Shown: in pieces, positions 1 to 54,090 of the stretch
Position numbering within the stretch: the first letter of the stretch is position 1
Layout: each line of letters opens with the position of its first letter
Assembly: GCA_029258795.1 (NCBI GenBank)
Contig: JAPDKB010000002.1
Location: forward strand, 50,822 to 114,821
Source of the DNA: an archaeon
GTDB lineage: Archaea; EX4484-52; WAPT01
DNA: 64,000 bases
Direction: 5' to 3'
Made by a program: the position numbers and the translations under genes
Notes under the pieces: model-generated
What the model saw: the letters and a program-made list of their open reading frames with translations, nothing else
What the model was told of the DNA's origin: nothing
The model's database searches: none

Positions 1-1656
1 AGAATAGTTATAACTGAAATTCCATATCAGGTCAACAAAGCGAGAATGATAGAGCACATAGCAGAGCTTGTGAAGGATGGAGTTATAAGCGGTATAAGAG
101 ACATAAGGGATGAATCGGATAGAGAGGGATTGCGCGTCGTTATAGAGCTGAGAAAGGATGCAGACCCCAACATAGTTCTCAATCAGCTCTACAAGCACAC
201 TCAACTTGAAACCAGCTATTCCATGCTGAATCTGGCTCTGGTTGACAACCAGCCGAAAATCCTCACACTCCGCCAGATGCTGGATGAGTTCATAAAGCAC
301 CGCTTCACCGTCATCAGGAGGAAAGCTTCTTACGAGCTGAAGCTTGCCAGAGACAGGGAGCACATAGTGGAGGGCTTGCTCATAGCTCTGGCCAACATAG
401 ATGAGGTTATAGACCTCATCAAGAAATCAAAGGACAGGAAGGAAGCCATGAGCTCACTCATCTCAAGATTCCAGCTGAGCGAGAAGCAGGCAGATGCCAT
501 CCTAACCATGCAGCTGCAGAAGCTGACCTCCATGGAAGTGGAGAAGCTGAAGGAAGAAAAGAAGGAGCTGGAGGAGAGAATAAAGAAGCTGCAGAAGATT
601 GTGAATGAAGATGATGAAGTTTACAGGATAATGAGAGAGGAGTTTGAGGAGATAAAGAAGAAGTATGGAAGGGAGAGGAGAACGAGAATAGAGGAAAGGT
701 ATGAAAGCATCGATATTGAGGACCTCGTGCAGGAGGAGGAGGTCATAGTTCTCTGCACAAAGGAAGGTTTCATAAAAAGGATGCCCGCAAAGCTTTACAG
801 AACGCAGAGGAGGGGTGGCGCTGGCATAATAGGATTGCGTGCTGGCGATCACGATTACACAAAACATCTGATAGCTTGTTCAACCCACGATATTCTGCTC
901 ATCTTTTCAAACAAAGGTGTGCTCCGCACAATCAAAGCTTACGAGATTCCGGAGGCGAGCAGATACAGCAAGGGAAGGCACATCTCACAGCTTTTGAAAA
1001 TGGGTGAGGATGAGAAGGCGGCTGCAATCATTCCTTACAGAAAATCAAACAATTACAAGTACCTCTTCATGTACACCAAAATGGGCATCGTTAAAAAATG
1101 CGAGCTTGAGCTTTTTGCCAACGCAAAGAGGAGCGGAGTTATAGCAATAAAGCTGAAAGAGGGAGATAAGTTGATGGGTGCAATGCTCACTACAGGAAAC
1201 AATACGATAATGCTCGCAACAAGGAAGGGCATGGCAATACTTTTCAATGAGCAGGACGTCAGACCCATGGGAAGGAGCGCGGTCGGAGTGGTTGGAGTCC
1301 GGCTTGGCAAGGGTGATGAGGTCGTTGCAGGAGCTGTGGTTGATGACGCGGATTACATCCTCACGGTTACATCGAAGGGTTATGTGAAGAAGAGCAGGAA
1401 GGAAGAGTACAGGGTGATCAAGCGCGGTGGAAAGGGTGTGACTAACATAAAGCTGAGCGAGAAGAATGGTGAGGTGGTGACGGCTTTTGGAGTTAGAGAT
1501 GAGGACGAGATTGTTGCGATAACCAAGAGCGGCATGACCATAAAGGTGAGTGTGAAGCAAATTCCATGTCACGGAAGAGCAACCATGGGTGTCAGGTTGA
1601 TCAAACTTAAAGATGGGGATGTCGTGGCGGACGCTGCAAAAATAATTAATATTTAG
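1..1656 (+). CDS. gyrA: DNA gyrase subunit A, C-terminal portion (5' end cut by window edge)
   Basis: Frame-1 translation is open from nt 1 (RIVITEIPYQVNKARMIEHIAELV...) and continuous with ORF 46..1656; repeated beta-pinwheel-like segments typical of the GyrA C-terminal domain; stop TAG at 1654-1656. Confidence 0.85.
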   Translation, partial: RIVITEIPYQVNKARMIEHIAELVKDGVISGIRDIRDESDREGLRVVIELRKDADPNIVLNQLYKHTQLETSYSMLNLALVDNQPKILTLRQMLDEFIKHRFTVIRRKASYELKLARDREHIVEGLLIALANIDEVIDLIKKSKDRKEAMSSLISRFQLSEKQADAILTMQLQKLTSMEVEKLKEEKKELEERIKKLQKIVNEDDEVYRIMREEFEEIKKKYGRERRTRIEERYESIDIEDLVQEEEVIVLCTKEGFIKRMPAKLYRTQRRGGAGIIGLRAGDHDYTKHLIACSTHDILLIFSNKGVLRTIKAYEIPEASRYSKGRHISQLLKMGEDEKAAAIIPYRKSNNYKYLFMYTKMGIVKKCELELFANAKRSGVIAIKLKEGDKLMGAMLTTGNNTIMLATRKGMAILFNEQDVRPMGRSAVGVVGVRLGKGDEVVAGAVVDDADYILTVTSKGYVKKSRKEEYRVIKRGGKGVTNIKLSEKNGEVVTAFGVRDEDEIVAITKSGMTIKVSVKQIPCHGRATMGVRLIKLKDGDVVADAAKIINI

Positions 1657-1681
1657 CGCCATAATACTTTCCCTGTTGCAA

Positions 1682-1803
1682 GGGCCGGTGGTCTAGCGGC
1701 TATCTGCGAAAACCGGAGGGCTCAGCTCTCTCCGGTCTTCCAGACCGAAGATGACGTCGCCCTCACGCGGCGAAGGTCGGCGGTTCGAATCCGCCCCGGC
1801 CCA
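1682..1803 (+). tRNA. tRNA-Val (anticodon CAC, tentative) with ~49-nt intron in the D-loop region
   Basis: Acceptor GGGCCGG pairs with CCGGCCC+A; intact T-arm GGCGG-TTCGAAT-CCGCC; anticodon arm TCGCC-CTCACGC-GGCGA; ~49 extra nt between the D-loop and the 3' D-stem strand form internal hairpins. Confidence 0.7.
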
Positions 1804-2262
1804 TAGAAATTATCCGAATCGCATGTTTACCTAATCGCCAACATAATGCGTTACGAATATCACAAGGAGTGCTATCATCACGTGTTCTGCTATCATGTTG
1901 ACCGGGGTTCATTTTTCATTCTGGCCATTCTGTAACTCAGAAATGAAAGGAGAGACAACTCCCAGAAAACGCTGACCAAAACAGCCTTCTCCAATTCCAG
2001 AAGCAACATGGGCACCAGAAAGCTGAGAGCGAAGATGCTTATTAGGGAGAAGGCTTGCTCTACCGTGGTTCATCACTCCATTAGCTTGTTTGATGAACAG
2101 GTGGAACAAGCCTCCCTATAAATGTTTTGTTATCGGGACAGTATCAAAATTCCGGACATGTCAACTTAAGAACCAATTTCTCCACTCTGGCATAAAAATC
2201 AAAATAAGGGGGCTCAGCATATCTTGATTTTGCAAAACACACCTTAAAGGAGGTGATATACC

Positions 2263-2893
2263 ATGCTGAGCCCCCATATAGATGAAATGTTCTCAAGGAT
2301 ATTTAAAAGAAACAAAAAGCTGAAAGAAAAACAAGATAAAGCCAGTATTGCTTTATTTCTCGGGATTATCATACAGAAAAGCAGGAGATGAAACAGATAT
2401 GAGCCATGAGAACGTGAGAAAGTTATTCAGAAAAACGAAAGAATTTCTCAGGGAAATAAAGCCAGTAAAAAGAAAAACGATAGCAATGGATGAGACGGTG
2501 ATAAAAACAAACGGGAGGAGATGTTACATTTACGCAGCTTACGCATGAGGGCTTATGCAGCAAGAAGTTATTTGGCAGCTCTGGATTTTGTAAAACGGGT
2601 TTTTGGAGTTGGGTAAGAAAATAATCTCCTGTTTGCTGTTGATAAGGCTCCGCGGCATTAGACGGGTTTTTGAAAGACCCGGGTTGAGATATGTGCATGA
2701 GACTTCTGGAATGAGGAATAAAGTGTGGAGGGGGATCTTTTGGTTATTTGAAGCAGGGAAGTGTTTTGTTTTATTCACGACAATTAATGTGAATTTGGGG
2801 TCTGTGTTTGGAAGAATGGATAAAAGGGTTGAGGGATGGAGAAGCTTTGAGGCATCTGAATTTGTTTTTGAAGTTGTTTATGGTTTATTATGA
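2263..2893 (+). pseudogene. Degraded IS6-like transposase (multiple frameshifts)
   Basis: Three consecutive frames together read like one IS6-type transposase: MLSPHIDEMF...ALFLGIIIQKSRR*, then LYFSGLSYRK...MDETVIKTNGRRCYIYAAYA*, then RSYLAALDFVKRV and LRYVHETSGMRNKV; no single intact ORF. Confidence 0.5.
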
Positions 2894-3282
2894 TTGGTTT
2901 GTCAGGAGGTGAGGCTTATCCGGATGCACTCCTTGCACATACCACAAACATTTATATATAACTTTTGCCAAAATATAAAGCCATGATTAAAGATGCAATA
3001 ATGTTGGTTTCTATAATGTGGGGTGGAAGGTCGAAACAATAAGAAAAGAAAGTGGAAAGAATCTTCTTTTGAAATTGACTTTATTTTATGTTGCGCTGGG
3101 TATTGCTATATTTTTTTACTATGTTCGGGACTTTTATGTATATAATCAGGCATTGGATTTTTTGTTCGGTAAAATAGGTGGAACATTCCATACAATTTCA
3201 TTCCTTTCCATTTTCCTCTTCTCCGTAGATATATTTTATTCAGAGAAGTGGAAGAGATAGATATGCTTACTTTCTGGGAATT

Positions 3283-3636
3283 TTGCTGATGACTGTTTTC
3301 GTGATTTTCCTGTGGAACGTAACGTTTGCCAGTGAAATTCAGGTGGTTAAGCTTGATAAGGAGTACGTCGTAACTCACGTTTATTTTCCAGATAAATCCG
3401 AAATGATGCTTTACGTTGTTTTAGTGAGTGTAATATCATTTTTACCTATTCTCTCATTTTTAGCTTACGGAATAAAGGTTCCGGCGAAAAGAAGAAAGGC
3501 TCTAACCTATTGTTTGGGAATAGCCGTTACCGCCTCAGGAACCATGCTTTGCCTCCTTATATCCCCAATACTTGCACGAGTTATGTATCTGCTGGGTGCA
3601 GTCATCTGCTATTATGCTTTCAAAATGAAGAGTTGA
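3283..3636 (+). CDS. Small hydrophobic membrane protein (hypothetical)
   Basis: 117-aa ORF with 3 predicted TM segments, in an AT-rich region; no recognisable family. Confidence 0.3.
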   Translation: MLMTVFVIFLWNVTFASEIQVVKLDKEYVVTHVYFPDKSEMMLYVVLVSVISFLPILSFLAYGIKVPAKRRKALTYCLGIAVTASGTMLCLLISPILARVMYLLGAVICYYAFKMKS

Positions 3637-3640
3637 GGTA

Positions 3641-4114
3641 ATGAACATGACTGTGCTGCGAAAAAAAGAAAGAAGCATATGTATATCCCAGAGAGAATGG
3701 GCGGTGATGACTAAAAGGTTGTATGAAGTTGCAGGAAAGGTTTTTGGTAGAGCGCTCTATGAAGGTGGACAGGTAAAAGGAAAGGAATTGGTAAAAAAAT
3801 ATGGCGTAAAGAAAGACGATTTGAAACAATTGCAAGAAGTAATAAAAAAAGAGGGCCTTGCAAGAAATGTGGAGATACATGATAGAGAAATATTGGTTGA
3901 AGGTTCTTTTGAAGGAGAAGCTCTAAAACCATACACAAGGCCTGTGTGTTTTTATCTCGCAGGGATCATTGCAACCATTTATTCAAAGATAGAAAAGGAA
4001 GATGTAAAAGTTGAAGAAACGGACTGCATCTCCACAGGTAAAAAAGTGTGCAGGTTTGTCGTCAGGCCGCTTGAGTGGTATGAAAAGATGAATGAAGTTA
4101 TGGAAATAATTTGA
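3641..4114 (+). CDS. V4R domain protein
   Basis: 157 aa; C-terminal motif CFYLAGIIATIYS...ETDCISTGKKVCRFVV matches the V4R (4-vinyl reductase) Cys pattern. Confidence 0.55.
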   Translation: MNMTVLRKKERSICISQREWAVMTKRLYEVAGKVFGRALYEGGQVKGKELVKKYGVKKDDLKQLQEVIKKEGLARNVEIHDREILVEGSFEGEALKPYTRPVCFYLAGIIATIYSKIEKEDVKVEETDCISTGKKVCRFVVRPLEWYEKMNEVMEII

Positions 4115-4345
4115 AAAAAGTAAGCATGTTTTGGCTTCGTTTCCTTATATAAAGGGACAAGCAATTGCGACTTACTTATTCATATTATATCGTTTGGATA
4201 GAGGATGCTTGGAACTTTTGAAGTGAGAGGCTTTGGGACACCTATGTAAGCCACCTCCAAACATTTTTATTGGTTATAAGCTATATATCTCTATCGAACA
4301 AACACCTATTCGCGGTCTAAGCCGCAGTATAGCATCTTCGTTCAT

Positions 4346-4419
4346 GGGGATAGGGAAAGCTTAATCAAAATGTCGCAGTCTTAAGCTGCATGTCCCAAGT
4401 CAAGCTTTTCCCTATCCCC
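4346..4419. repeat. 17-bp inverted repeat (GGGGATAGGGAAAGCTT / AAGCTTTTCCCTATCCCC) with ~40-bp spacer
   Basis: Direct reading of 4346-4362 against 4402-4419; additional short palindromes nearby (GCGGTCTAAGCCGC); non-coding stretch. Confidence 0.5.
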
Positions 4420-4562
4420 TAAACATTTCCTTTCTTTTAAGCATGAAGTAAATTGCAATGCATAACTTTCTTGCTGCAGCAACTATTGTTTTGTGTGCTT
4501 CATAAATACCCACGGTGAGAGTCTGGGTCTTCTGGTGGCTATGCCCGACCGGGTTTTTTGAT

Positions 4563-5443
4563 ATGAGAGTGTGCATTGTTGGTCCTGCGAATCCTGGCGA
4601 GACAGAGATAGCTCTCACCGAGGCCGCCAAAAAGCGCTATTCCAAGGTATTGTACGCGCCCTTTTCCCGTCTCAGGATAGAAATGGTTGCCGGAGAGCCG
4701 AGAGCCTTCTACAAGGAATAGACCTTTCAGAGTTTGACATTGTCATACCCCGCGTCAGGAGGAGCGACGCGGATTTCGCATACGTCCTCTTAGGGGTTCT
4801 CGAGGACCTGGGAGTCTATTCTCCAATCTCGAGGGACAGCATTCTCTACGGGTTCAACGAGTATCTCATACCTTTCATTCTCGGGAGGGCTGGGGTCGAG
4901 ACCCTCACAACCCTCCTGGGCTCTACCCGGGCCGCCCTCGAGAAATCGATCTCGAGGCTGAGGTTCCCCGTGGTGGTAAAACTCCCCCACAACAAGGACG
5001 GGGCAATGATAGTGGACAGCGAGAAGATCGCCAGGTGCGTGCTCGACACTCTCGAGAGCCTCGGAGAGCCGATAATAGTCCAGGAGATGCTCGAGGGATC
5101 TGAGAGCTTCAGCATCCTCTATATCGGGGAGAGAACATATTGCATAGAAAAGCACAACGGGACCGCGAGAAAGAGAAAGCTTGGCATAGAAGAAAAGCGG
5201 ACCGCGAGGCGCATGACATCCCTCCTGGGAGCGAGCGTGTGTCAGCTGAACGGAATGATCTCTGGAGATAGGCTCGTGGTCATAGACCTCAACATCAACC
5301 CCTGGGTGCACAGACTCCAGGAGCACTTCAAGACCAACCTGTTCGAAAAGATCCTGGACCACCTGGAGAGCGGGTACTCTTCCTCTCGACGGGGCACTAT
5401 CCTAGACAAGTTCCTGAAATGGTTCGAGGAGATGAGGTGGTAG
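4563..5443 (+). pseudogene. RimK-like ATP-grasp ligase interrupted by a frameshift at ~4715
   Basis: N-terminal part MRVCIVGPANPGETEIALTEAAKKRYSKVLYAPFSRLRIEMVAGEPRAFYKE* (ORF 4515..4721) continues in another frame as GIDLSEFDIVIPRVRRSDADFAYV...PVVVKLPHNKDGAMIV (ORF 4571..5443); junction sits at a GG run; region is markedly GC-rich versus flanks. Confidence 0.6.
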
Positions 5444-5613
5444 AGTGTACAACGTTCTCATTACGGCATCGCCAAGAGTCTTGTGGACTACCCGCCAGCT
5501 TATTGAGGAGGGCAGGAAGAAGTTCAACCTCCACGTTGTCTCTCTATATGTTATCAATATTGAGGTTTCTCCCGGGATCGTCTCGTGCAGGCACAAGCGC
5601 TATTTATAAACGT

Positions 5614-6954
5614 TTAGTTTTTGCGGGAGAATAAGTCCTTATAATGACCCCAGTCCAGAATCTCCTTTAAGAAATCATTTATTTTAGACTCCAACATTAT
5701 GAGCCTTCCATCAGGGTCATAAACCCTTTCCAGAATATTTATGCGCTCGTCCAAAGTATTCCCATTTAAGCCTTGATAAAGAGGAGAGGAAAGAACTTCA
5801 TACAGTTTTTTAAGAATTTGTTCTTCACAAGCAAGAGCTTTACATTCCCGGATTTCCGATTTATATTTTTTAATTTCTTCAACCCTATTCTTCATTATTG
5901 AAATGCTTTCGCTTATTTTCTTCAGTTTTTCTTCACAATCCTCTACTCCCTTTATACTGTATTTCTTAAGCCAGATTTTTAATATCTGTGGCGGGAAAGT
6001 TTTCGGATTCTCTAGTATAATCCCCGAAAGATTTTCATCTCTTACTACCGAATTAATTTCATTGAAGATATCATCTCTGTTTATAACGTAATCCCATTTT
6101 ATTTCTATACCTTCCCGTGTTTTTTTTCCAAATTTATTCAACATATTAACAAAACTTCTCGGCAGATTGTTTGAATGTTTCTCCCACATATACTCTATTT
6201 TTCTGTCAGCTTTCACTCTATAGACTGAAAATAGACACGAAGAAAGTGGAGGTTCTACGCAGATTGGAAGACCTGAGATGTCTTCCAGACCTGAGATCTC
6301 TTCCAGATTTTCAGATTCTATATAACGATTATACTCATAGATTGGGTTTTTTGTTGATATTATAATTCTCTTGCCTTCATCCCGTTGCTCAAGGGCTATT
6401 AATGCAAGTTCATTCATGACAGCTTTTCCTATGTCTCTTGTAGCTTCTCTTGCGACAAGATCTCCTACGTAGTCCCAGTTATCGATGCATACAACCTCTG
6501 CCTCATTTATAAGCTTTTTTGGGTCAGTTAGATCGGCTTTTAGGGTCCATTCCCATTTTTCTCTATTTTCCTCTGAAAGATATATTCTAGGGTCAAATGC
6601 CTTTATATCTCCTGTGAAGATATCGAAATATACTCCTGCAGGAAATATATCTTCTTCCGCTAAAATATTAAACGCAGCTAGAATTCTGGTGGTTTTTCCT
6701 ATACCTCTTGTTCCACGAAGTTCTATATTATCTGACTTGATCCTATCTGCTAATATTTTCGAGTCCAAATAATATACTTTACATTTTAGTATGTCATTCA
6801 ATAGATTATAGTCCATTTCTTCCGCTCTGAGCGGAATATTCGGAGAGTAATCTTCTGATGTCACTTGATTTGGACTTTTAATATCAGTTTCCTTCATAGA
6901 TAGAAATTTTTGACATAAAATTTTAAATAATTTTGGCTCCACGCCATAAAACAT
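5614..6954 (-). CDS. Orphan P-loop NTPase (archaeal ATPase-like), function unknown
   Basis: 446 aa; Walker A LRGTRGIGKTTRIL, Walker B-like VVCIDNWD; coiled-coil-rich C-terminus; AT-rich gene beside IS elements. Confidence 0.55.
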   Translation of the reverse strand: MFYGVEPKLFKILCQKFLSMKETDIKSPNQVTSEDYSPNIPLRAEEMDYNLLNDILKCKVYYLDSKILADRIKSDNIELRGTRGIGKTTRILAAFNILAEEDIFPAGVYFDIFTGDIKAFDPRIYLSEENREKWEWTLKADLTDPKKLINEAEVVCIDNWDYVGDLVAREATRDIGKAVMNELALIALEQRDEGKRIIISTKNPIYEYNRYIESENLEEISGLEDISGLPICVEPPLSSCLFSVYRVKADRKIEYMWEKHSNNLPRSFVNMLNKFGKKTREGIEIKWDYVINRDDIFNEINSVVRDENLSGIILENPKTFPPQILKIWLKKYSIKGVEDCEEKLKKISESISIMKNRVEEIKKYKSEIRECKALACEEQILKKLYEVLSSPLYQGLNGNTLDERINILERVYDPDGRLIMLESKINDFLKEILDWGHYKDLFSRKN

Positions 6955-6978
6955 ATAAAAAACATTTAATTCGGCAAG

Positions 6979-7819
6979 GATTCATAACAAAAACAAGAGC
7001 TTTCTCTATTCCATCATCCAATTAATTTCCCATAAATTCAAAAACGAAGAAAATTTTTTCATGTTCTTAAAACCGCGAAACTTTCTGTATCTGTTCCTGA
7101 GCCATGAGATCAAACCTTCTGCCCTGTTATTGCTAAGAAAATAAATCATACCTTTATGAAAAACAATCTTTTTTTCAAAATGAGCTATAACACGCTTAAT
7201 CTTTCTAATTCTTAACCCCTTTCTCAGGGTTTTACTATCATATCCATACCATCCATCCGTTACTATTATCTCAGGTTTGTATCCCGCATTCTCTATAGCT
7301 TTTCTAAGCAATCTAACAACTTCTTTGCTTTCCCTTCTATCACTAACATGCATTGCCATAATTCTTGATCTTTCATCGCAGCAAACATAAAGATAGTTCA
7401 TTCTTCCCTTAGCTTTAACATACATCTCATCCAAATGCCATACCTCTGCAATTTTTTCAAATTCCTTATTCTTTGCCTTAAGCTCTTTGAGAAACTTTTT
7501 ATCCTTTCCAAATTTATGTATCCAGTTAAGAACAGTTCTTGCAGGAACTCTTATTCCTTTAAATTTTTCCATAATCTTCTCAACATCATAGGTTGAAACA
7601 ACAAATCTTGAGTAAAGCCACAGGCAAAGCATAACAATCTCTTTATCATATCTTATCCTCGCAAATTCGTCCATACCTTTTTCTGAGAAAACGTAGAAAC
7701 ATTTTTTGCATCTGTATCTCTGGTATTTCTTATCTTTATGTTTGTAAAAACCCAGCTTCCATATATCTCTTGATGAGCATCTGGGACATGAAATCTTCAT
7801 GAATTTTTTATTATGAATG
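6979..7819. mobile_element. IS6-like insertion sequence (~840 bp) with imperfect terminal inverted repeats
   Basis: Left end ATTCATAACAAAAA (~6980-6993) versus reverse complement of right end ATTCATAATAAAAA (~7805-7818), 13/14 match, bracketing the transposase ORF 7006..7800. Confidence 0.5.
7006..7800 (-). CDS. DDE transposase, IS6-family-like, with N-terminal zinc finger
   Basis: 264 aa; CPRCSS...YRCKKC zinc ribbon; DDE region WHLDEMYVKAKGRMNYLYVCCDERSR...IIVTDGWYGYD resembles the IS6 DETYVK..G..YL..A.D motif (IS1-like is an alternative). Confidence 0.7.
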   Translation of the reverse strand: MKISCPRCSSRDIWKLGFYKHKDKKYQRYRCKKCFYVFSEKGMDEFARIRYDKEIVMLCLWLYSRFVVSTYDVEKIMEKFKGIRVPARTVLNWIHKFGKDKKFLKELKAKNKEFEKIAEVWHLDEMYVKAKGRMNYLYVCCDERSRIMAMHVSDRRESKEVVRLLRKAIENAGYKPEIIVTDGWYGYDSKTLRKGLRIRKIKRVIAHFEKKIVFHKGMIYFLSNNRAEGLISWLRNRYRKFRGFKNMKKFSSFLNLWEINWMME

Positions 7820-7826
7820 AGGTTAT

Positions 7827-8726
7827 TTATATGTTTTTTGGCGTAGAACCCATTAATTTCTCTATTACTGCCAGAGTTTTCCCTATTAAATTTGTTTTTA
7901 AATTAAGCAAAAATTCGAAAAAGCTTACCCATAAGCTAAGATATTTCTTGCTTATCCCCCTAAACACCCTATACCATGATTTTAAAAAAGAAAATCTATT
8001 CTCTGCATTGTTAATATGAACATTGCCTTCCGCAAACCTTTTCTTGTTATGCGGGATTATTCCATGTTTATAACCTTTTCTCTCTATTTCCTTTGTATAA
8101 ATAGGAAAGTCATCAGTATTTACTATAGAGCCTTTCTCAACATAAGTTTCGAGTAGCTCTAAAACAAGCTCTTCACTTAAGCCTTCCAGAGCTACGAAGA
8201 ATATGCTCTTACCTTTTCTTTCAGTTAAAACTATGACTGGAGTTTTGCCTTCTTTTAGCCCACCTCTACCTTTAATTCCAGTTCCACCCCTCTTCATAGG
8301 CTTTCTAGAAAGCCTTCTATTACCCTTTTCACCAGCTGTTAGATAGGTTTCATCCATCTCAACATTAACTTTTAGCTTGGAAGCTATTTGCCTTGCAAGC
8401 AAATCTTGCTTGATTTTCTTAGCTGCTTTCCAAACATGCTCATATTTTCTACCAAGATCGATTGCTATTGAATAAATGCTTCTTCCAGCCGAATGCTCTT
8501 TTATTATATAAGACCATTCCCAAATCGGTAGCTTTGATTTATCGAATATCGTTTTGGTTCTATTGTTGAAAGTTCTTTTGCATTTTTTGCAAAGATAGCG
8601 TTGAAAGCCTTTCTTATCCTCACCCCTCTTAACAACCTCCTTTGACCCGCAGAAAACGCACCTTACTCCTTCTTTCCATCTAAGCTTTTGGATTATTTCT
8701 ATGCACTTCTCATCACCTGGGGGCAA
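7827..8726 (-). CDS. IS1595-family-like transposase
   Basis: 299 aa; N-terminal zinc ribbon CVFCGS...QRYLCKKCKRTF; DDE motifs VEMDETYLTAGEKG and VNTDDFPIY; C-terminal NAENRFSFLKSWYRVFRGISKKYLSLWVSFFEF typical of IS1595/ISH4. Confidence 0.7.
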   Translation of the reverse strand: MPPGDEKCIEIIQKLRWKEGVRCVFCGSKEVVKRGEDKKGFQRYLCKKCKRTFNNRTKTIFDKSKLPIWEWSYIIKEHSAGRSIYSIAIDLGRKYEHVWKAAKKIKQDLLARQIASKLKVNVEMDETYLTAGEKGNRRLSRKPMKRGGTGIKGRGGLKEGKTPVIVLTERKGKSIFFVALEGLSEELVLELLETYVEKGSIVNTDDFPIYTKEIERKGYKHGIIPHNKKRFAEGNVHINNAENRFSFLKSWYRVFRGISKKYLSLWVSFFEFLLNLKTNLIGKTLAVIEKLMGSTPKNI

Positions 8727-8820
8727 AATCTCTTGCAGTCAGCATACATTGTTATTTTATAGTTTTCTATTTTCGTTATGAGATGTGAGCGAAAGCTTTT
8801 TGTAGTTGATTTTTTGAACT

Positions 8821-9636
8821 TTGTTTATGATGCCCGGTAAAAAAGCTGTGATTCTAATAGGAGGAATGATAATGGTTGTGGCAGTTCTGAGCTTATGCGT
8901 GCAGAAACCGGAAGAAGGGGCACCCACGATTCAGCCAGGAAAGGAATTAAAGCTTTCTGATTTCCCTGAAGTGTTTAGCGAGAGTACTTTGATTGTTGTT
9001 GGAGACAACGCTTCTGAGGTTGAAGTTCAAGCAGCTAATGAAATTGCTGAATATTTGGAGGATGAGACCGGGAATAAACCTTTGATAAAGAAGTATTCTG
9101 AGGTTAGTGAGGAAGATAAGAGAAATTACAACTTGATTATTGTTGGCGCTTCTAATTCTAACCCTATGCTAAGGAAAGTCTCTGAGGAATGTACAAGAAA
9201 GAACTTCAAAAAATTAGAATTTAAGGGAGTTAATAGTTATTGGCAGGGCACAGGTAAAGGATACATACTTATTTTAGAAAACTTATGGTCGACAAGTAAA
9301 TGTATGTTGATTGTTGATGGATATGACAGCAGCGGGCTAGAATCTGCAGTTAGCACCCTTTTAAATACAGATATAATTATGTCCATAAACAATAGCGGTA
9401 TTTTAGTAAAATTAGAGAGTAGTACTCGAATACAAACTCTTCCAGTGTCTAAACTTTCAAAAATAGTGGCTAAAGATATTGCAGCAGAGTATTTGATAAA
9501 ACGATGTCAAACTATTCCTGAGGATAGTTTTAAGCTGAAAGTGTCGGATTTTGGAGATTACTGGCTAATTGAAGGAGGCTGTATCAAACTTCTAGTAGAT
9601 AAAAATAATGGTTTTGTAGAGGAGGTGAAATCTTGA
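8821..9636 (+). CDS. Secreted protein with S-layer-like N-terminal domain
   Basis: 271 aa; N-terminal signal/TM; conserved block TLIVVGDNASEVEVQAANEIAEYLEDETGNKPLIKKYSEVSEEDKRNYNLIIVGASNSN resembles archaeal S-layer N-terminal domains; paralog of the 9757..10685 gene. Confidence 0.55.
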   Translation: MFMMPGKKAVILIGGMIMVVAVLSLCVQKPEEGAPTIQPGKELKLSDFPEVFSESTLIVVGDNASEVEVQAANEIAEYLEDETGNKPLIKKYSEVSEEDKRNYNLIIVGASNSNPMLRKVSEECTRKNFKKLEFKGVNSYWQGTGKGYILILENLWSTSKCMLIVDGYDSSGLESAVSTLLNTDIIMSINNSGILVKLESSTRIQTLPVSKLSKIVAKDIAAEYLIKRCQTIPEDSFKLKVSDFGDYWLIEGGCIKLLVDKNNGFVEEVKS

Positions 9637-9756
9637 AGGCCAATTAATGACCTTCTTTGTATTATTCGTTCTCTTGTGTCCTACTGCATACGACATTCTA
9701 TCATCGAGATACTCTCTAAAATTCTATAGTAGTAACCAACTTTTGAAAGTTCACAT

Positions 9757-10685
9757 TCATGTATTATCACCTCCTACTAACATGGAACCGTCGCTACATC
9801 CTTCAGCCTGGCATGGAACTTTTACATTTTTTAAACCCCAGTCGTGGATCACTACTAAATTTAGACTCTTATTTAGATTAATCACAGCACAACTATGGTT
9901 GACAATATAGTTCAGAGTTGGATAACCTACGAAATAAGTTTCGTTTGATGATAAAAAGCTCTTGTTAACAATTATTCTCCCGTAATATTTATCTTCGCCA
10001 ACCTGGTGTAAAGGTGCTGTAACTATTTCTTTAATCGACTCGAACGTTCTTGTACTTTTATTATATCCGATCAATTGATATAAAGTCACTACTTTAGGTG
10101 GCTCTCCACTTAACTCATATTTTGGATCTGATGGTTCATCTGTTAGAACTAAAACATCTATTCTGATCTTGTCCTTAATGCTTGGAGCAATTACTACACT
10201 GGTTTCATTTTTAATCAGTGCAATCGGGTTTAGTTCAAGTCCCGCACTATACACCCCCACTCATCCCACCCTTCAACCAGTAACATCGCCTTATTTTTAT
10301 TCCAAGGATTCCTCAAAATTTCCAAAACACCCTTACCCTCTCCCGGAAATGTATCATTAACTTCCAAAACATCAACCATAGAATAAACTTCTATCAGCAT
10401 GAGATTGGAATTCGGCGTGCCAACAACAACTAAATTGTGGTTTCTTTTATCTTTCTCCGTGATTTCAGAATATTTTTTTATTAAGGGTTTATCCCCTGTT
10501 TCATTTTCCAAATAAGAGGTAATCTCGTTTGCGGCTTGCAATTCAATCTCAGAAGCATTATCACCAACGATAATTAAGGTATTATTCCCGAAATTTTGCC
10601 AGAGGAAAATGCCTATTATCAAAAGGATTAAAATTACGGTTCCTGCAATAATTAAGATCTTTCTGTTCATCATAATGTTTATCAT
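9757..10685 (-). pseudogene. Frameshifted paralog of the S-layer-domain protein
   Basis: ORFs 10230..10685 and 9757..10260 overlap by 31 nt in different frames; together they align with the 8821..9636 protein (LLVEGWDE then SAGLELNPIALI versus LIVDGYDSSGLESAVSTLL); shift lies in a poly-C run near 10254-10258. Confidence 0.55.
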
Positions 10686-10843
10686 TAAGTCTCATTATGC
10701 TTTTTTAATTATAAAATTTACGGCTCCAAGCGGCTTCGAGACAAAATTCATAGCTTGAGTTTTCGAGCTATGAAGATCAGAACTCCATACCACAAAAATT
10801 AGTTAGCTAAAACATTTCCGTATAAAAAACCATATTATACAGC

Positions 10844-11848
10844 ATGGGGGATAAAAAGAAAAGAAAAATAACAACCGAGGAAATAAGAGACATTACAAAC
10901 AAACTTGATAAAATAATCAAATATTACAAAGAGAAATACGGGGAAGATAAGAGCAGGAGAGACTGGCGTACATATGAGCAGAGAAGAACATTAAGGATGA
11001 AGCAGGCAGGGAGAGAGCTAAAAAATCTTATAGAAAGGGCTGCAGAGAATATAGAAATAGCTAAGGATAACAACAGGGGAAGAAAGCCGAAGCTTACAGC
11101 CAAGGACAAAGCCCTGATCATTCTTATAAAGGAAATATTCGATCTGAGCAACAGAGAACTTGCTGATATGATATTCATCTTTTCCTTAATGGCAGGAGTT
11201 GATGTAAGTTATAAAACCATTGAGAGAGCTTACGATGATGAGCTTGTTAAGTTAAGCCTGCACAACTTATTCGTTCTCATGGTTAAGGAAAAGATTATAG
11301 ATGATGTTGAGCTTGCTGGAGATGGAACTGGATACAGCTTGAGCATTAAGAAGCAATATGCTGATATTGAGGATGAGGGAAAGCAAAGAAAGGATTTCGT
11401 TTATTACTTTGCTCTGCTCGATTTAAGAACAAATCTTTATGTTGGATATGGCTACAGTAAAAGGTCGGAGAGGGATGCTTTTGATAAGGCCATGAAAATT
11501 ATGAGTAAGCTCGGCATTAATGTTAAGAGTGTGAGGCTTGATAGATATTATTCAAGCAACGCTGTGGTTAAAGAATATTTTGATGATAAGGATGTTAAGC
11601 TTTATTTAATTCCCAAGAAGAATGCTTCTGTTAAAGGCTGTAAGAAATGGAAGGAAGTTATGCATGGCTTTGCTGATGATGTTTACGGGTTTTTGCGTGA
11701 GTATTTTAAAAGGAATAAAGTTGAAAGCATGTTTTCCTTTGATAAGCGTAAGTTTTCTTCTCGATTAAGGGTCAGGAAGGATGAGAGAATTGCTACGAGC
11801 TTGCTTGCAAGGACTGTCTTGCATAATTTGTTTTGGTTTTATGGTTAG
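10844..11848 (+). CDS. Putative DDE-type transposase (family uncertain)
   Basis: 334 aa; lysine-rich N-terminus with HTH-like region, LAGDGTGYSL and later acidic motifs; sits among IS elements; family assignment not verified. Confidence 0.45.
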   Translation: MGDKKKRKITTEEIRDITNKLDKIIKYYKEKYGEDKSRRDWRTYEQRRTLRMKQAGRELKNLIERAAENIEIAKDNNRGRKPKLTAKDKALIILIKEIFDLSNRELADMIFIFSLMAGVDVSYKTIERAYDDELVKLSLHNLFVLMVKEKIIDDVELAGDGTGYSLSIKKQYADIEDEGKQRKDFVYYFALLDLRTNLYVGYGYSKRSERDAFDKAMKIMSKLGINVKSVRLDRYYSSNAVVKEYFDDKDVKLYLIPKKNASVKGCKKWKEVMHGFADDVYGFLREYFKRNKVESMFSFDKRKFSSRLRVRKDERIATSLLARTVLHNLFWFYG

Positions 11849-11923
11849 CTATTGGGTTAATTTTGTCCCAAAGCCACCACAACCACAAACTTTATATACG
11901 ACGATCGCAATATTTCTATCTGG

Positions 11924-12952: not shown

Positions 12953-13011
12953 AAGTACTGCAAAATTTAAAAGTTAACGCTGTAAAATATTTTTCGTTCT
13001 CCTGCCCGGGT

Positions 13012-13181
13012 GCGGGGGTTGCCGAGCCTGGCCAAAGGCGCTGCCTTGAGGGGGCAGCCGCCGCGGTGTATGAGAGGTGGCGCCGCAGTGGCCCATTCCC
13101 TTAGTGGGTTCGAGGGTTCAAAAGCTTGGTCAAGCCGTCCTCCCTCGGCAGCTTAAATGGCTGGAAGTCCCTCCCCCCGCA
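13012..13181 (+). tRNA. tRNA-Leu (anticodon GAG, tentative) with two non-canonical introns (variable region and T-loop)
   Basis: GCGGGGG acceptor pairs with CCCCCGC+A+CCA; D-arm GCCGAGCCTGGCCAAAGGCG; anticodon arm CTGCC-TTGAGGG-GGCAG; T-stem GAGGG...CCCTC split by ~45 nt; ~40 extra nt before the variable arm (TCCCTTAGTGGGTTC). Confidence 0.6.
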
Positions 13182-13213
13182 CCACCATCATGCTTCATGT
13201 TCCTTACGTTCAT

Positions 13214-13351
13214 GCGGGGGTTGCCGAGCCTGGCCAAAGGCGCGGGGCTTAGGACTCCGTGGCTCAGTGCCTGCGTGGGTTCGAAGGCCGCTGTTCGGTG
13301 GCTGGGTTTTCAAGTCCGATCTTAACGCGGCCGGAACTCCCACCCCCCGCA
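13214..13351 (+). tRNA. tRNA-Leu (anticodon TAG) with T-loop intron
   Basis: Same 30-nt 5' end as the upstream Leu gene; anticodon arm CGGGG-CTTAGGA-CTCCG; long variable arm; T-stem GTGGG...CCCAC interrupted by ~50 nt after TTCGAA; CCA encoded. Confidence 0.65.
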
Positions 13352-13423
13352 CCAGCCCGAACCAGATTTCTGCCAAGAATTCACCATTAATTATATAAAC
13401 GATGAAATCCCCAACCTTTACTC

Positions 13424-15466: not shown

Positions 15467-16633
15467 TCACTGCTCTCTCTTGCTCCCGATCGTCACCAGC
15501 TCCGTGTTTTCAAGCGCTTTTTCCACAAGCCCTTCAACATCCATATTCTCCTCTATTCTCTTCACAACCTCCAGCTTTGCCCTTGTTTCGGGATGCTTCG
15601 CTATCATGAACGAGCAGCAATCGGGATATGGTTGAATTGAAATTTCGTACGTGCCGATCCTTTTTGCAAGATCTATGGTTTCCTCCTTGTCAAAGCCAGC
15701 TAGCGGTGTGAGCACGGGCATGCCTGTAGCTTCATAAATCGCTGCAAGATTGTCCAGAGTTTGCGATGCTACCTGCGCCACATTGTCTCCGGTGACAAGC
15801 GCGTTTGCTCCCTCCTTTCTCGCTATTTTTTCACCTATCCTCATCATGAACCGCCTGTAGATTATCATTCTGTAGGAGGCGGGCACAACCTTTATTATCT
15901 CGCGCTGCACATCTCCAAAATTCACCATGTAGAGCTTGCTCTCGCCCTGAAATTCTGCAAGCACCCTCACAATGCTCTCGATCTTCTTCCTCACCTCCCT
16001 GCTGTGCAGCGTTTCATTGAAGAAATGGACAAAAACAATTTTGCATCCGCGTTTCATGAGAAGGAATGATGCAACAGGGCTGTCTATACCGCCTGAAAGC
16101 AGGGACACCACCCTGCCGGAAACGCTGACCGGCAGACCGCCAACACCCTCAATTCTTTCCGTGTAGATGTACGCTTCCTTCTCACATATCTCGATGTGCA
16201 CCACAACATCCGGCTCTTTCATCTTCACCTTCTTGCCCAGCTTCTCCACCACCACACTCCCAACCATTCTGTTGATCTCCATCGAGTTGTATGGAAAGGA
16301 TTTGTTTGAGCGTGATGCCGCTATCTTGAACGTGCTGAACTTCATGTCCTGGAGAATGGCTACTGCAGCTTTCTTGATCGCCTCGATATCCAGCTTGCAA
16401 ACCCTTGCCAGCGCGAAATATCTTATGCCCGGAGTTTTGCTGAGCTTCTCCGCAATTTCATCAGCCTTGCTTTCATCTCTAATCTCCACTATTATCCTTC
16501 CAAACCTTCTCCTTGCCAGCGCGCCGGCCCCCTTCACCTTCCTGTTGATGTTCTCCACCAGCTTTTTCTCAAAGAATTCCCTGTTCTCTCCTTTCAACCC
16601 TATTTCGGAATAATGCACAACAAAAACCTTCAT
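15467..16633 (-). CDS. thiI: tRNA 4-thiouridine sulfurtransferase ThiI
   Basis: 388 aa; N-terminal THUMP-like region; PP-loop SGGIDSPVASFLL; overall ThiI architecture. Confidence 0.8.
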   Translation of the reverse strand: MKVFVVHYSEIGLKGENREFFEKKLVENINRKVKGAGALARRRFGRIIVEIRDESKADEIAEKLSKTPGIRYFALARVCKLDIEAIKKAAVAILQDMKFSTFKIAASRSNKSFPYNSMEINRMVGSVVVEKLGKKVKMKEPDVVVHIEICEKEAYIYTERIEGVGGLPVSVSGRVVSLLSGGIDSPVASFLLMKRGCKIVFVHFFNETLHSREVRKKIESIVRVLAEFQGESKLYMVNFGDVQREIIKVVPASYRMIIYRRFMMRIGEKIARKEGANALVTGDNVAQVASQTLDNLAAIYEATGMPVLTPLAGFDKEETIDLAKRIGTYEISIQPYPDCCSFMIAKHPETRAKLEVVKRIEENMDVEGLVEKALENTELVTIGSKREQ

Positions 16634-16679
16634 GGAGAAAAAGTATTGTGAGGAAAGGTTAAAAAGGATGAACCCGGGT

Positions 16680-17261
16680 TTACTTGCCCCTGCCCTGATT
16701 TGCTCTTATGCTCGGCCTTACCTTCTCAGCACCTTTACCCTTGTTTCTCAATCCTCTGGCTTTCTTGCCCGCTGAGGTCAGCCCTCTAAACACCCTGCCT
16801 TTGTGCGCCTTTCCCGCTATCCATCCGAGCTGTTCATCGTTCTTTATGGCCGGATGGTGTGGGTCGAGCATTATCACCTCATACCACACGTACTGTCCGT
16901 CCTCCCCCACATAATAGCTGTTCAGAACTTCGAGGTTTGGATAGTGCCTTGCTGCCCTCTCCTCAGCTATCCACTGCAAGCTTTTCTTCGGACTGAACAG
17001 AACGAAACCGTATCTCTTTGGTCTCCTACCCTGCCTGTGTCTCGGCCTCTCTCTTCCACCCCTCTTAACACGTACCCTGACAACAACCACACCCTGCTTT
17101 GCTTTATAGCCGAGCGATCTTGCCCTGTCTATTCTTGTGGGTCTCTCAACTCTAACCACGGCAGGTTCTCTCCTCCACTTTATCAATCTCTCCTGCCATA
17201 GCTTGCCCAAGCTTTCCTTCGGTCTCTTCCACAGGGTTCTGACGTACTGGTACATGCCCAT
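16680..17261 (-). CDS. rpl15e: Ribosomal protein L15e
   Basis: 193 aa starting [16 protein letters not shown]; basic, with the L15e-type [12 protein letters not shown]... segment. Confidence 0.85.
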
Positions 17262-51984: not shown

Positions 51985-52105
51985 CCCGCCGTAGCTTAGT
52001 CTGGTAGAGCGCTCGGCTGTAGGTCTGTGCCGCGTGGTATGGCGCAGCCACGCAGCCAGTTGCTCAGAAACCGAGAGGTCCCCGGTTCGAATCCGGGCGG
52101 CGGGA
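51985..52105 (+). tRNA. tRNA-Tyr (anticodon GTA) with canonical anticodon-loop intron (~47 nt)
   Basis: Acceptor CCCGCCG/CGGCGGG+A+CCA; D-arm GCTT-AGTCTGGTA-GAGC; anticodon stem CTCGG...CCGAG with CTGTAG then intron; intact T-arm CCCGG-TTCGAAT-CCGGG. Confidence 0.75.
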
Positions 52106-52432
52106 CCAAATTGAAAATGCTAGATTTTTCATAACAAACATGTATTCAAAATCCAATCGGTAATTTTTTATAAGTAAAAATGAACGGATATGAAAGGGGA
52201 TTTGAACACTTCTGACTGTTCAAGAAATATTCTGAAAAAGATTAGAAATATTTCCACCTTATCTATGAGACCACAAAACTTATTAAGCACTTTTTGACGA
52301 ATTATGAGAAAAGCTAGTTATTTAGAAGTGAATAACTCATTTTGTAAAGGACTCCCCACAAAAGAAATTAGAAACACAGAGGGAAAATTAAACATTTTTT
52401 ACAAATGGTCTATTAAGTAATGAATGAGGAAA

Positions 52433-53863
52433 CTACCCAAAGGGTGAGTTAGGAATATTCAGCTTTTTGTACAAATATGCGCAACTTTCTCCTTTACATA
52501 TTTCTTTTATAATTTTTAATGAAGAGTCGTTACACCTGAAAAATGCTATCTTATATTCAATTGGAGATTCTAAAAATTCTTTCTCAGAATATACCACATG
52601 TATCTTTTTATTTGAATAGAATGCAATTGGAGGACAATTTCCAATACAGACAACTTCAGGAATATTAGTGGTGTTGAGATAGAGACCCATTTCTTTAGTA
52701 ACATATCTTAATCCTTGCTCAAATTCTATTTGAGGAGTGTAACATCTTTGGTATTGTGTAATTAAAAAAGAAAATGAAAACAGAATAAAAAATGAAAATA
52801 TAATAAAGAATATTGGGCGATCCAACTTAAAATATTTTCCAAACTCTACAAAAAAATAAGATATGAAACACACTAGAAAAGATACCAGAAGAAGAAAAAA
52901 CCTTTCTACTTCCCAAGGAATTGTAGGAGGCTTCGCAACATTTCTAAAAACTATACTTGAAGAGTATACAAATAGTGTCAAAGAGGCATAGATTAGAATA
53001 AGATTATATTTTCTTTCATATGGAGATAATTGTCTGTTGAATATTTTTTCTTTCATAAAAATAAGTATTCCAAGAAAAGAAAAAAGCACAAAACCAGTTC
53101 CTAGAGAATCGTTAAAAAGATAAACTAAAAAACTAAGCTCAGACTTGTCTCCTTCGGAAATTACATGTGATGCCTTTATGAAGGTATAGAAAGGGTTTCC
53201 AAATTTTAGATAATTGAACAATATATACGGTAACATTCCCATGAAAAAGATAAAAATGAAGAAAAATATCTCTTTTATTTTCTTTCTTCTAATTAATTCT
53301 AGAACTAGTGGCAATATTAGAACCCAAATCAAAAGATTTGTGAATTTCATCAAAACTGCTAAACTCAAGAACAATGCACTTGCATAAATATGTACTGGGT
53401 TTTGGTTTTTTGTTCCATAATACATAAGAATGAAACTCATTAAACCAAGAACACACGCGGGATGATCTGTAAGGACATACCTACTGTGGAGTATGCTAAG
53501 CGGAAATATCGCAATAAGAGAGGAACTAAATCTTGCAACTCTTTCATCAAATAATTTACCTAAATAGTATACAGGAAAAACAATTAAAGAATTAAAAAAG
53601 GCAAGAAACACTTTAGAATATACGAGATAATTTTGTGGAGATAATTTCCATATAATGGCTAAGAATAGAGATATCAATGGAGGCCTTAAAGAGATTTCTT
53701 CATACCCAATTTCTTCCCCTCCAAATAATTTTCCGTGGAGTAAATATACGGCTTCGTCCCATATCACATACGTTGTATCTATAAATGTGAGTCTCAAAAA
53801 TAAAGCTATTCCAAAAATAAATAGGAGGAATGTCACATCCTTTCTGCCCATCTTCAATCTCAT
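52433..53863 (-). CDS. GT-C type glycosyltransferase (PMT/ArnT-like, family 39/83-like)
   Basis: 476 aa, polytopic; N-terminal YVIWDEAVYLLHGKLFGG...RPPL motif typical of PMT_2/ArnT; strongly AT-rich gene. Confidence 0.55.
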   Translation of the reverse strand: MRLKMGRKDVTFLLFIFGIALFLRLTFIDTTYVIWDEAVYLLHGKLFGGEEIGYEEISLRPPLISLFLAIIWKLSPQNYLVYSKVFLAFFNSLIVFPVYYLGKLFDERVARFSSSLIAIFPLSILHSRYVLTDHPACVLGLMSFILMYYGTKNQNPVHIYASALFLSLAVLMKFTNLLIWVLILPLVLELIRRKKIKEIFFFIFIFFMGMLPYILFNYLKFGNPFYTFIKASHVISEGDKSELSFLVYLFNDSLGTGFVLFSFLGILIFMKEKIFNRQLSPYERKYNLILIYASLTLFVYSSSIVFRNVAKPPTIPWEVERFFLLLVSFLVCFISYFFVEFGKYFKLDRPIFFIIFSFFILFSFSFLITQYQRCYTPQIEFEQGLRYVTKEMGLYLNTTNIPEVVCIGNCPPIAFYSNKKIHVVYSEKEFLESPIEYKIAFFRCNDSSLKIIKEICKGESCAYLYKKLNIPNSPFG

Positions 53864-54090
53864 AATAGTTTGTTTTTCGTTCGTTTAAATTAATTATAAT
53901 TATCACGGAAATTATCGACCTGTTCTCTGAAATTCAATTTATGGGATAAATGATATTAATTGAATCTAGATTTTTGGAGATGACAAAATAAAATAAATTC
54001 GTAACGATTAAATCCAAGAGGAGAGGATAAGAGTGCTGGCATTATGATATAATTACCAGAAGTAGGTTTAGAAGCGCCTTCTCATTTTCA

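Follow-up and report, generated by a model that had tools for sequence, protein, structure and literature searches.

The window analysed here, a 64,000-nucleotide (nt) stretch of contig JAPDKB010000002.1 (assembly GCA_029258795.1, positions 50,822 to 114,821), carries on its minus strand a gene whose product, a protein of 427 amino acids (aa), belongs to an AAA+ family of archaea that is very small and has not been described before. The family combines an initiator/loader-like fold with a catalytic site that has degenerated. To judge from its sequence, the protein is most likely an ATP-binding switch with slow or absent hydrolysis. The gene stands alone and behaves as horizontally acquired accessory DNA. 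The window itself is archaeal, with an archaeal signal recognition particle RNA and the 3' part of gyrA at its left edge.

An uninterrupted open reading frame (ORF) of 446 codons occupies 5614..6954 on the minus strand, and 446 aa was the length given in the original prediction, which had been made from the sequence alone. The native product is instead a 427-aa protein starting at 6897, because the first ATG lies inside a terminal repeat of an adjacent insertion sequence (IS) and the upstream stretch of an IS-free copy of the gene lacks a start codon. That copy, found at locus L013 (GCA_054010815.1; loci holding family members are numbered with an L), is 99.0% identical in nucleotide sequence and has no ATG, GTG, or TTG in the in-frame upstream stretch. 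The database gene call is likewise 427 aa long and 100% identical to the window protein, and the homologues start 5 to 25 residues ahead of a conserved IPLRAE motif in the family alignment. Residue numbers refer to the 427-aa form of the window protein throughout. The features of the gene and its upstream border are as follows.

5614..6897, minus strand: native coding sequence (CDS) of the AAA+ protein, 427 aa plus stop, start ATG at 6895-6897.
6898..6954, minus strand: 19 further codons at the 5' end of the ORF, which are spurious; their ATG (6952-6954) falls within the left inverted repeat (IR) of the IS6-like element.
6921..6928, minus strand: TATA-box-like ATTTAAAA, 24 to 31 nt upstream of the native ATG, read from the sequence.
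6935..7850, minus strand: IS6/IS240-type IS of 916 bp, with 29-nt terminal IRs at 6935-6963 and 7822-7850 (25/29 complementary).

The IS6-like element sits 38 nt ahead of the native start codon, and its end lies 7 nt beyond ATTTAAAA, which is itself retained and is a possible promoter for a leaderless transcript. The gene is AT-rich, as had been predicted, with a G+C content (GC) of 35.2% against 44.1% for the remaining window, in which no second copy of the family was found. The ORF is a real gene, since relatives at 22 to 45% identity have its motifs in common and its N-terminal domain is modelled confidently.

The structure was modelled with AlphaFold from a 13-sequence alignment of the family; a single-sequence model, with a predicted local distance difference test score (pLDDT) of 36, was not used. 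In the first part of the family alignment, an N-terminal IPLRAE is followed by Walker A (xPKGxGKT), GIYFDPxTG, Walker B (hhhhDNxHYxxD), and GKxIIhx(T/S/D)E; the second part comprises hxhxPPxxxxLxxIYxV, SDxxPRSFVNMxNxFGK, a variable Lys/Glu-rich helical region, and a tail, EhNxGSYxxELL. Invariant columns are G65, G67, K68, T69, D139, N140, Y143, D146, K176, R247, F249, N254, and G257. Walker A and Walker B motifs had been expected in the N-terminal half of the protein and are found there, as GTRGIGKT and VVCIDN. The elements map to the window as follows.

6820..6837, minus strand: conserved N-terminal IPLRAE (residues 21-26), from the alignment, pLDDT about 90.
6691..6714, minus strand: Walker A/P-loop GTRGIGKT (residues 62-69), with G65, G67, K68, and T69 invariant.
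6478..6495, minus strand: Walker B strand VVCIDN (residues 135-140), with D139 and N140 invariant; model strand 135-139.
6349..6369, minus strand: beta-4/sensor-1 RIIISTK (residues 177-183), from the alignment; model strand 177-182.
6269..6304, minus strand: 18-nt tandem duplication coding for LEEISG-LEDISG, from a repeat search and the alignment.
6124..6162, minus strand: lid motif PRSFVNMLNKFGK (residues 246-258), with R247, F249, N254, and G257 invariant; model helix 246-256.
5842..5955, minus strand: coiled-coil-like helix (residues 315-352) of about five heptads, from heptad periodicity; model helix 318-346.
5626..5775, minus strand: conserved C-terminal tail (about residues 375-424), from the alignment; low-confidence model helices, family pattern ...L..L.rvYd...(F/I)LnEiN.GsY..eLl.

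The alignment-based model, with a pLDDT of 85 to 95 over residues 20-270 and a predicted template modelling score of 0.65, has the alpha-beta-alpha core and C-terminal helical lid that define the AAA+ fold. Its elements run from beta-1 and a canonical P-loop through beta-3 with D139, the Mg-binding Asp of Walker B, and beta-4, which leads to sensor 1, to beta-5 and then the lid. The sensor-1 position is polar (T, S, or D) in all family members, and the model places the invariant R247 of the lid helix at the sensor-2 position. Between beta-2 and beta-3, an insertion of about 40 residues, modelled as a beta-hairpin (86-100) and three short helices (109-132), occupies the place in which a helical insertion specific to initiators (ISM) would be expected. 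Fold searches returned the initiator/helicase-loader clade (Hda/DnaA, Orc1/Cdc6, DnaC/DnaI, and IstB) as the nearest structural neighbours of the model, and the matches in the BFVD viral fold library were all of a generic DnaC- or RFC-like kind.

In every family member the second acidic residue of Walker B is replaced by Asn, leaving no catalytic Glu, and from sensor 1 to beta-5 the family alignment has no column of conserved Arg or Lys that could serve as a trans-acting arginine finger (box VII). It is because of these two features that we regard the protein as a probable ATP switch. The loop in which the arginine finger would be expected contains the LEEISG-LEDISG duplication, which is confined to the lineage of the window gene. 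In its ATP-bound state the protein would act through lid closure and binding of a partner or of DNA, on the pattern of Hda, DnaC, and IstB, which are small AAA+ adaptors, and not like a motor, with its short coiled-coil-like helix and conserved C-terminal tail offering a dimerisation or docking surface.

A long coiled-coil C terminus had also been predicted. Residues 315-352 are indeed heptad periodic by a home-made score that is not that of COILS or MARCOIL (0.78 against 0.68 for the 95th percentile of shuffles, with 0 of 300 shuffles as high), and by the same score four of six relatives have one or two segments of 28 to 33 residues at varying positions. For the remainder of the C-terminal 150 or so residues, which are modelled as helical at a pLDDT of 35 to 57, the prediction was overstated.

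Two positions distinguish the window protein and its L013 counterpart, a 99% twin, from all other members, namely residue 142 (6472-6474, Walker B +3), which is Asp in these two and His elsewhere, and residue 183 (6349-6351, sensor-1 +1), which is Lys in these two and Glu elsewhere. As the model places the two residues on neighbouring strands, H142D and E183K form a reciprocal charge swap that is possibly compensatory rather than degenerative.

The family is exceedingly rare. Neither the window protein nor any of the 13 members matched a model of Pfam, NCBIfam, PADLOC, or PHROGs above threshold, which bears out the prediction of an orphan P-loop NTPase. Weak, subthreshold matches to Pfam AAA_22 were obtained for 4 of the 13 members (best E value, 3e-4), and no Pfam or NCBIfam match to Bac_DnaA, IstB_IS21, or Cdc6-type models was found in any of them. 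No chain in the PDB matches the window protein in sequence, and PDB profile searches aligned the P-loop alone. A word-indexed search of 5.8 billion clusters with the single protein recovered only the window protein itself. When 1.84 billion cluster representatives were scanned exhaustively with phmmer, 11 relatives emerged, and 8 of these had an E value below 1e-10. A profile search of the clusters, limited to the ATPase domain because the full-length alignment was swamped by Lys/Glu-rich words, added one further relative, and the JGI metagenomes added one more locus. Among 185,579 species, each represented by one genome, a motif scan identified two carriers, an uncultured Archaeoglobaceae metagenome-assembled genome (MAG) and Archaeoglobus sp. 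GB_MAG2_100. Where hosts are named, they are Archaeoglobus or Archaeoglobaceae and a Micrarchaeota MAG. Assembly GCA_054010815.1 contains two family paralogs that are only 24% identical to each other.

When the ORFs around seven loci were compared all against all, and when two further loci (L018 and L020) were included in a later comparison, no neighbour family was found in common, in agreement with the prediction that no partner nuclease or effector is evident. The gene lies 7 to 17 GC points below its flanks in six of eight loci. At L013 the gene together with its intergenic regions accounts for the low-GC stretch (about 9800-11600), which measures 1.8 kb and lies between the TrmB and XPD genes. 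At L006 the gene lies between 47-nt direct repeats (45/47; 5140-5186 and 6701-6747) with a local alignment score of 84, whereas none of 200 shuffles exceeded 33; the first copy is the 3' end, including the stop codon, of the MobB/AAA_28-like gene that lies upstream. At L002 the repeat on either side of the gene measures 26 nt (23/26; 9956-9981 and 11364-11389; score, 37 versus 30). Borderline repeats occur at L007 (36 nt, 28/36) and L013 (15 to 16 nt, overlapping the TrmB start codon), and none were found at L005 and L012. The L006 and L002 repeats look like the insertion of a single-gene unit of about 1.5 kb with a long target duplication; no recombinase lies inside the bracketing repeats, and no empty insertion site of the L006 cassette was present among the family loci retrieved. 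Close relatives (85% identity) are found near different tRNA genes in L007 and L009. Broken copies were found in 4 of 11 loci, by a frameshift and early stop (L009), a split into 271 and 135 aa (L012), an in-frame stop with 3' truncation (L017), and division into four pieces (L018). Low GC, bracketing repeats, decay, and the lack of a shared neighbour together mark the gene as accessory, a unit of one gene that genomes acquire horizontally and frequently lose.

A confident match to a housekeeping ATPase family in a conserved, non-island context would have contradicted the original prediction; we found neither a family match nor shared neighbours. The prediction was for the most part right about what is there.

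As to the role of the family, we lean tentatively, and with rather less than even confidence, towards an origin in archaeal mobile elements and a replication-type function. The protein would be a replication-type adaptor of such elements, acting on DNA or on a replisome component (clamp or helicase), and chromosomal copies such as that of the window would be lone survivors lodged in variable regions. The contexts that fit are those of L002 and L020, the two loci in which the GC of the gene equals that of its surroundings and in which the context is of a replication or element-like type. At L002, on the 42.5-kb contig CAYXDX010000005.1, family member P0005 is the first in a long series of small ORFs, all in one direction and without annotation. 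Some 550 nt ahead of P0005, an AT-rich intergenic stretch contains an iteron-like array (9380-9446) of three copies of a 17-nt repeat resembling CAAACGAAACTTAACAA, spaced by 28 and 22 nt, and an HTH (helix-turn-helix) protein with weak replication-initiator matches is encoded nearby; two other assemblies break just upstream of P0005. The 2.7-kb contig L020 carries, at 24-2379, a gene for PCNA, a 63-aa ORF, and family member P0007 overlapping that ORF, all at 57% GC, and its PCNA is most similar to that of A. fulgidus (1rwz, 3.5e-45).

Several observations weigh against this role. The PCNA adjacency, the sole hint of a link to the sliding clamp, comes from that one contig. At most loci there is no other mobile-element gene alongside, and no relative was found in IMG/VR, PHROGs, INPHARED phages (tblastn), or PLSDB plasmids. 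Pfam, PDB profile, and fold searches revealed no domain for DNA binding, neither a winged helix nor DnaA domain IV, and the C-terminal region is poorly modelled. D146 could be an alternative catalytic residue, which would count against slow hydrolysis. Defence clusters stand beside several relatives and fit a defence function equally well.

Such a function is the principal alternative, and we consider it doubtful but a genuine contender. The protein would then be a stand-alone or loosely associated antivirus or antiplasmid protein of an abortive-infection-like kind, in which an ORC-like AAA+ sensor or switch, triggered by an invader, would oligomerise through the coiled coil and possibly disturb replication, with rapid gain and loss of the gene. 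At L017, on an Archaeoglobaceae-type contig, the gene directly follows, on the same strand, the BrxP-BrxC-PglZ-BrxL genes of a type 4 BREX (bacteriophage exclusion) operon at 146-9688. On a contig of the same type, BrxP and BrxC (L013:1-4583) lie 5.4 to 10 kb from the L013 gene. PDC-S01 (AAA_14/DUF4143), HicA, HerA-like, and DruA genes are found within 7 kb of the L007 gene, and a DndC-like gene is found 1.2 kb upstream of the L002 gene. The foreign composition, patchy distribution, and frequent decay of the gene would also suit a defence gene. However, the neighbouring systems differ from locus to locus, the BREX-adjacent copy is itself one of the broken ones, and defence islands also gather unrelated mobile DNA. 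A defence gene lies within 10 kb at four of nine loci, which does not clearly exceed what would be expected. The window protein has no match among the PADLOC models, a single isolated LmuB match (4e-5) was obtained for one family member, and there is neither an effector domain nor a conserved partner. Other copies lie among ribosomal and translation genes (L005, L012, and L018) or beside PCNA, and the fold is nearest to replication initiator and loader ATPases. The defence or abortive-infection reading is possible though doubtful, and the caution with which it was originally put forward was appropriate.

The immediate surroundings of the window gene have been heavily rearranged, as is evident from comparison with L013. 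The remaining features are as follows.

7006-7800, minus strand: IS6/IS240-type transposase, 264 aa (PF13610, 6e-21).
7827-8726, minus strand: IS1595-type transposase gene, 299 aa (PF12762, 4e-22; PF12760).
4571-5443: RimK-like gene, apparently intact; a 293-aa ortholog is known.
5445..5600, plus strand: truncated pseudogene, the 5' 156 bp (some 52 codons) of another RimK paralog, identified by comparison with L013.
5588..5600: junction of the ATPase segment and the RimK segment, a 13-nt overlap, from blastn against L013.

By blastn, L013 positions 9968-11311 correspond to window positions 6930-5588 at 99.0% identity, and positions 15850-16968 correspond to 5600-4484 at 95.7%. The first block spans the gene, 33 nt upstream, and 26 nt downstream, and homology ends at 6930, five bases short of the end of the IS. 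About 4.5 kb of L013 is missing from the window, namely genes for an XPD/DinG-like helicase, a YgjP-like protein, and a 277-aa product, together with the larger part of one RimK paralog; from the sequence comparison, the RimK fragment is the leftover of this deletion. On the upstream side, the IS6-like element and the IS1595-type transposase gene stand in place of the TrmB-like gene and what lies beyond it in L013, with the right IR of the former overlapping the 3' end of the latter. The gene had been described as lying between a pseudogene and two IS elements. The two transposase genes immediately upstream agree with this description, but the neighbour downstream is the apparently intact RimK-like gene, accompanied by the fragment of the second paralog. 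An identical IS-gene junction is present in L014, an independent metagenome contig. The gene is thus intact, yet its surroundings are cut back to less than 40 nt on both sides. That the ATPase segment is more similar between the window and L013 than is the adjoining RimK segment suggests a more recent exchange of the ATPase gene than of the chromosomal flank.

Another reading is that the gene is, in this genome, a functionless relic, a passenger of IS-mediated rearrangements that is intact only through recency, which we regard as unlikely. Both flanks are rearranged within 40 nt of the CDS (the IS6-like element 38 nt upstream and the deletion junction 14 to 26 nt downstream), other loci hold the broken copies described above, and the protein deviates at two near-invariant positions (H142D and E183K). 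The gene differs from its L013 counterpart at six nonsynonymous and three synonymous sites, too few for an informative ratio of nonsynonymous to synonymous substitution rates (dN/dS). Against a relic, the frame is intact over 427 codons with all invariant motifs kept, the TATA-like element at -24 to -31 is retained, the modelled charge swap looks compensatory, and the IS-gene junction recurs in a second sample (L014).

A more speculative proposal, which we would call a long shot, is that of a self-contained, single-gene genome-conflict module. An ATP-locked ORC/Hda-like switch would dock on the replisome (e.g., PCNA) to block or hijack competing replicons, and the gene would spread as a 1.4- to 1.8-kb cassette with target duplications of 16 to 47 nt and no recombinase of its own. 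If true, this would represent a new kind of archaeal defence or counterdefence protein as well as a new kind of trans-mobilised gene cassette.

That the protein is a housekeeping replication factor, a host Orc1/Cdc6, RFC, or Hda-like paralog, is very improbable. The fold clade of initiators and loaders and the relative located directly after a host-like PCNA gene would agree with such a factor, but the motif scan finds the family in 2 of 185,579 species only, its GC is foreign to most hosts, its contexts are not syntenic, pseudogenes are frequent, and it matches no replication family of Pfam or NCBIfam. Least credible of all, and rejected here, is an IstB-like helper ATPase of the adjacent insertion sequences, because these are mere neighbours and not partners of the gene: there is no IS near the L013 copy, no other locus pairs a family gene with a transposase, the IS6 and IS1595 neighbours each have their own single transposase and IRs that exclude the ATPase gene, and no member scores against Pfam IstB_IS21.

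Other observations in the window concern its IS-rich and AT-rich stretches. The stretch at 1.7 to 12 kb, from gyrA to the tRNA-Leu genes, is littered with IS. It contains a short transposase-remnant-like ORF (2348-2548) with a weak DDE_Tnp_IS240 match (E value, 0.008), and another short ORF (4412-4630), the end of which may resemble an IS110-type transposase C terminus. A 334-aa ORF (10844-11848) has no Pfam or PADLOC match and is flanked by 17-nt IRs (10732-10748 and 11859-11875; 88% complementary); its 90% cluster was found on several short contigs, and 10732-11875 may be an undescribed insertion sequence. In the same AT-rich stretch as the ATPase gene, two diverged paralogs with weak S-layer-like domain matches (8821-9636, plus strand, and 10230-10685, minus strand) surround a 167-aa ORF. 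They are inverted, with 195-nt arms that are 73% complementary, and the pair may be the product of an inversion or a duplication.

Two tandem tRNA-Leu-like genes (about 13012-13186 and 13216-13354, within 12990-13360) share their first 21 nt, both end in ...CCCCCCGCACCA, and each apparently has a long insertion or intron. ARAGORN called only 13223-13300, with an odd anticodon position, and Rfam recognised neither gene even at an E value of ≤1. The 21-nt repeat of the window was considered as a tRNA att site and rejected, being the shared 5' end of these genes. A second AT-rich stretch (52000-54000), with a GC of 30 to 33% versus about 44%, starts right after an intron-containing tRNA gene (51985-52105) and includes a gene for a 476-aa PMT_2-like glycosyltransferase (52433-53863); it may be another acquired segment.

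For now, the protein is an accessory ATPase that awaits characterisation; it helps annotation and offers a lead but is no surprise in itself. If the preferred reading of a mobile-element replication adaptor is true, the family is an unrecognised archaeal branch of the AAA+ initiator/loader group with a naturally hydrolysis-impaired site, and the protein is an ATP switch whose gene travels alone. The family would then add to the unannotated gene content of archaeal variable regions and raise hypotheses on PCNA, MCM, DNA binding, and virus or plasmid replication. The direct repeats around the gene in some genomes hint at a single-gene mobility route in archaea.

Among known systems, Hda and DnaA domain III are bacterial, whereas the present family is archaeal and has no sequence-profile match to them. 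Where Hda and DnaA have D-D or D-E in Walker B, it has D-N, and it also lacks the box VII arginine, DnaA domain IV, and a recognised clamp-binding motif and possesses an extra C-terminal region that is helical and in part coiled-coil-like. In contrast to archaeal Orc1/Cdc6, it has no recognised winged helix, catalytic Glu, or arginine finger and no Cdc6 or AAA_22 match at threshold. It differs from DnaC/DnaI and IstB in lacking a helicase- or IstA-binding N-terminal domain and in being unlinked to a helicase or an IS21-type transposase. Compared with BrxC/PglY and STAND defence ATPases, the protein is far smaller and has no sensor repeats, effector domain, or PADLOC match; a relationship to BrxC was rejected, as hhalign against BrxC N termini aligned the P-loop only (probability, 1.3%). 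Because defining features of DnaA, Orc1/Cdc6, IstB, and the PADLOC defence proteins were looked for and not found, the protein is not to be filed as any of these.

SSV-type DnaA-like AAA+ ATPases serve as an established marker of archaeal mobile elements (PMC6563490). No sequence relation between these and the present family was detected with PHROGs, INPHARED (tblastn), or IMG/VR. The likeness lies in their nature as archaeal, mobile-element-associated, DnaA-like AAA+ proteins, and it is seen in the L002 relative, which heads an element-like gene string.

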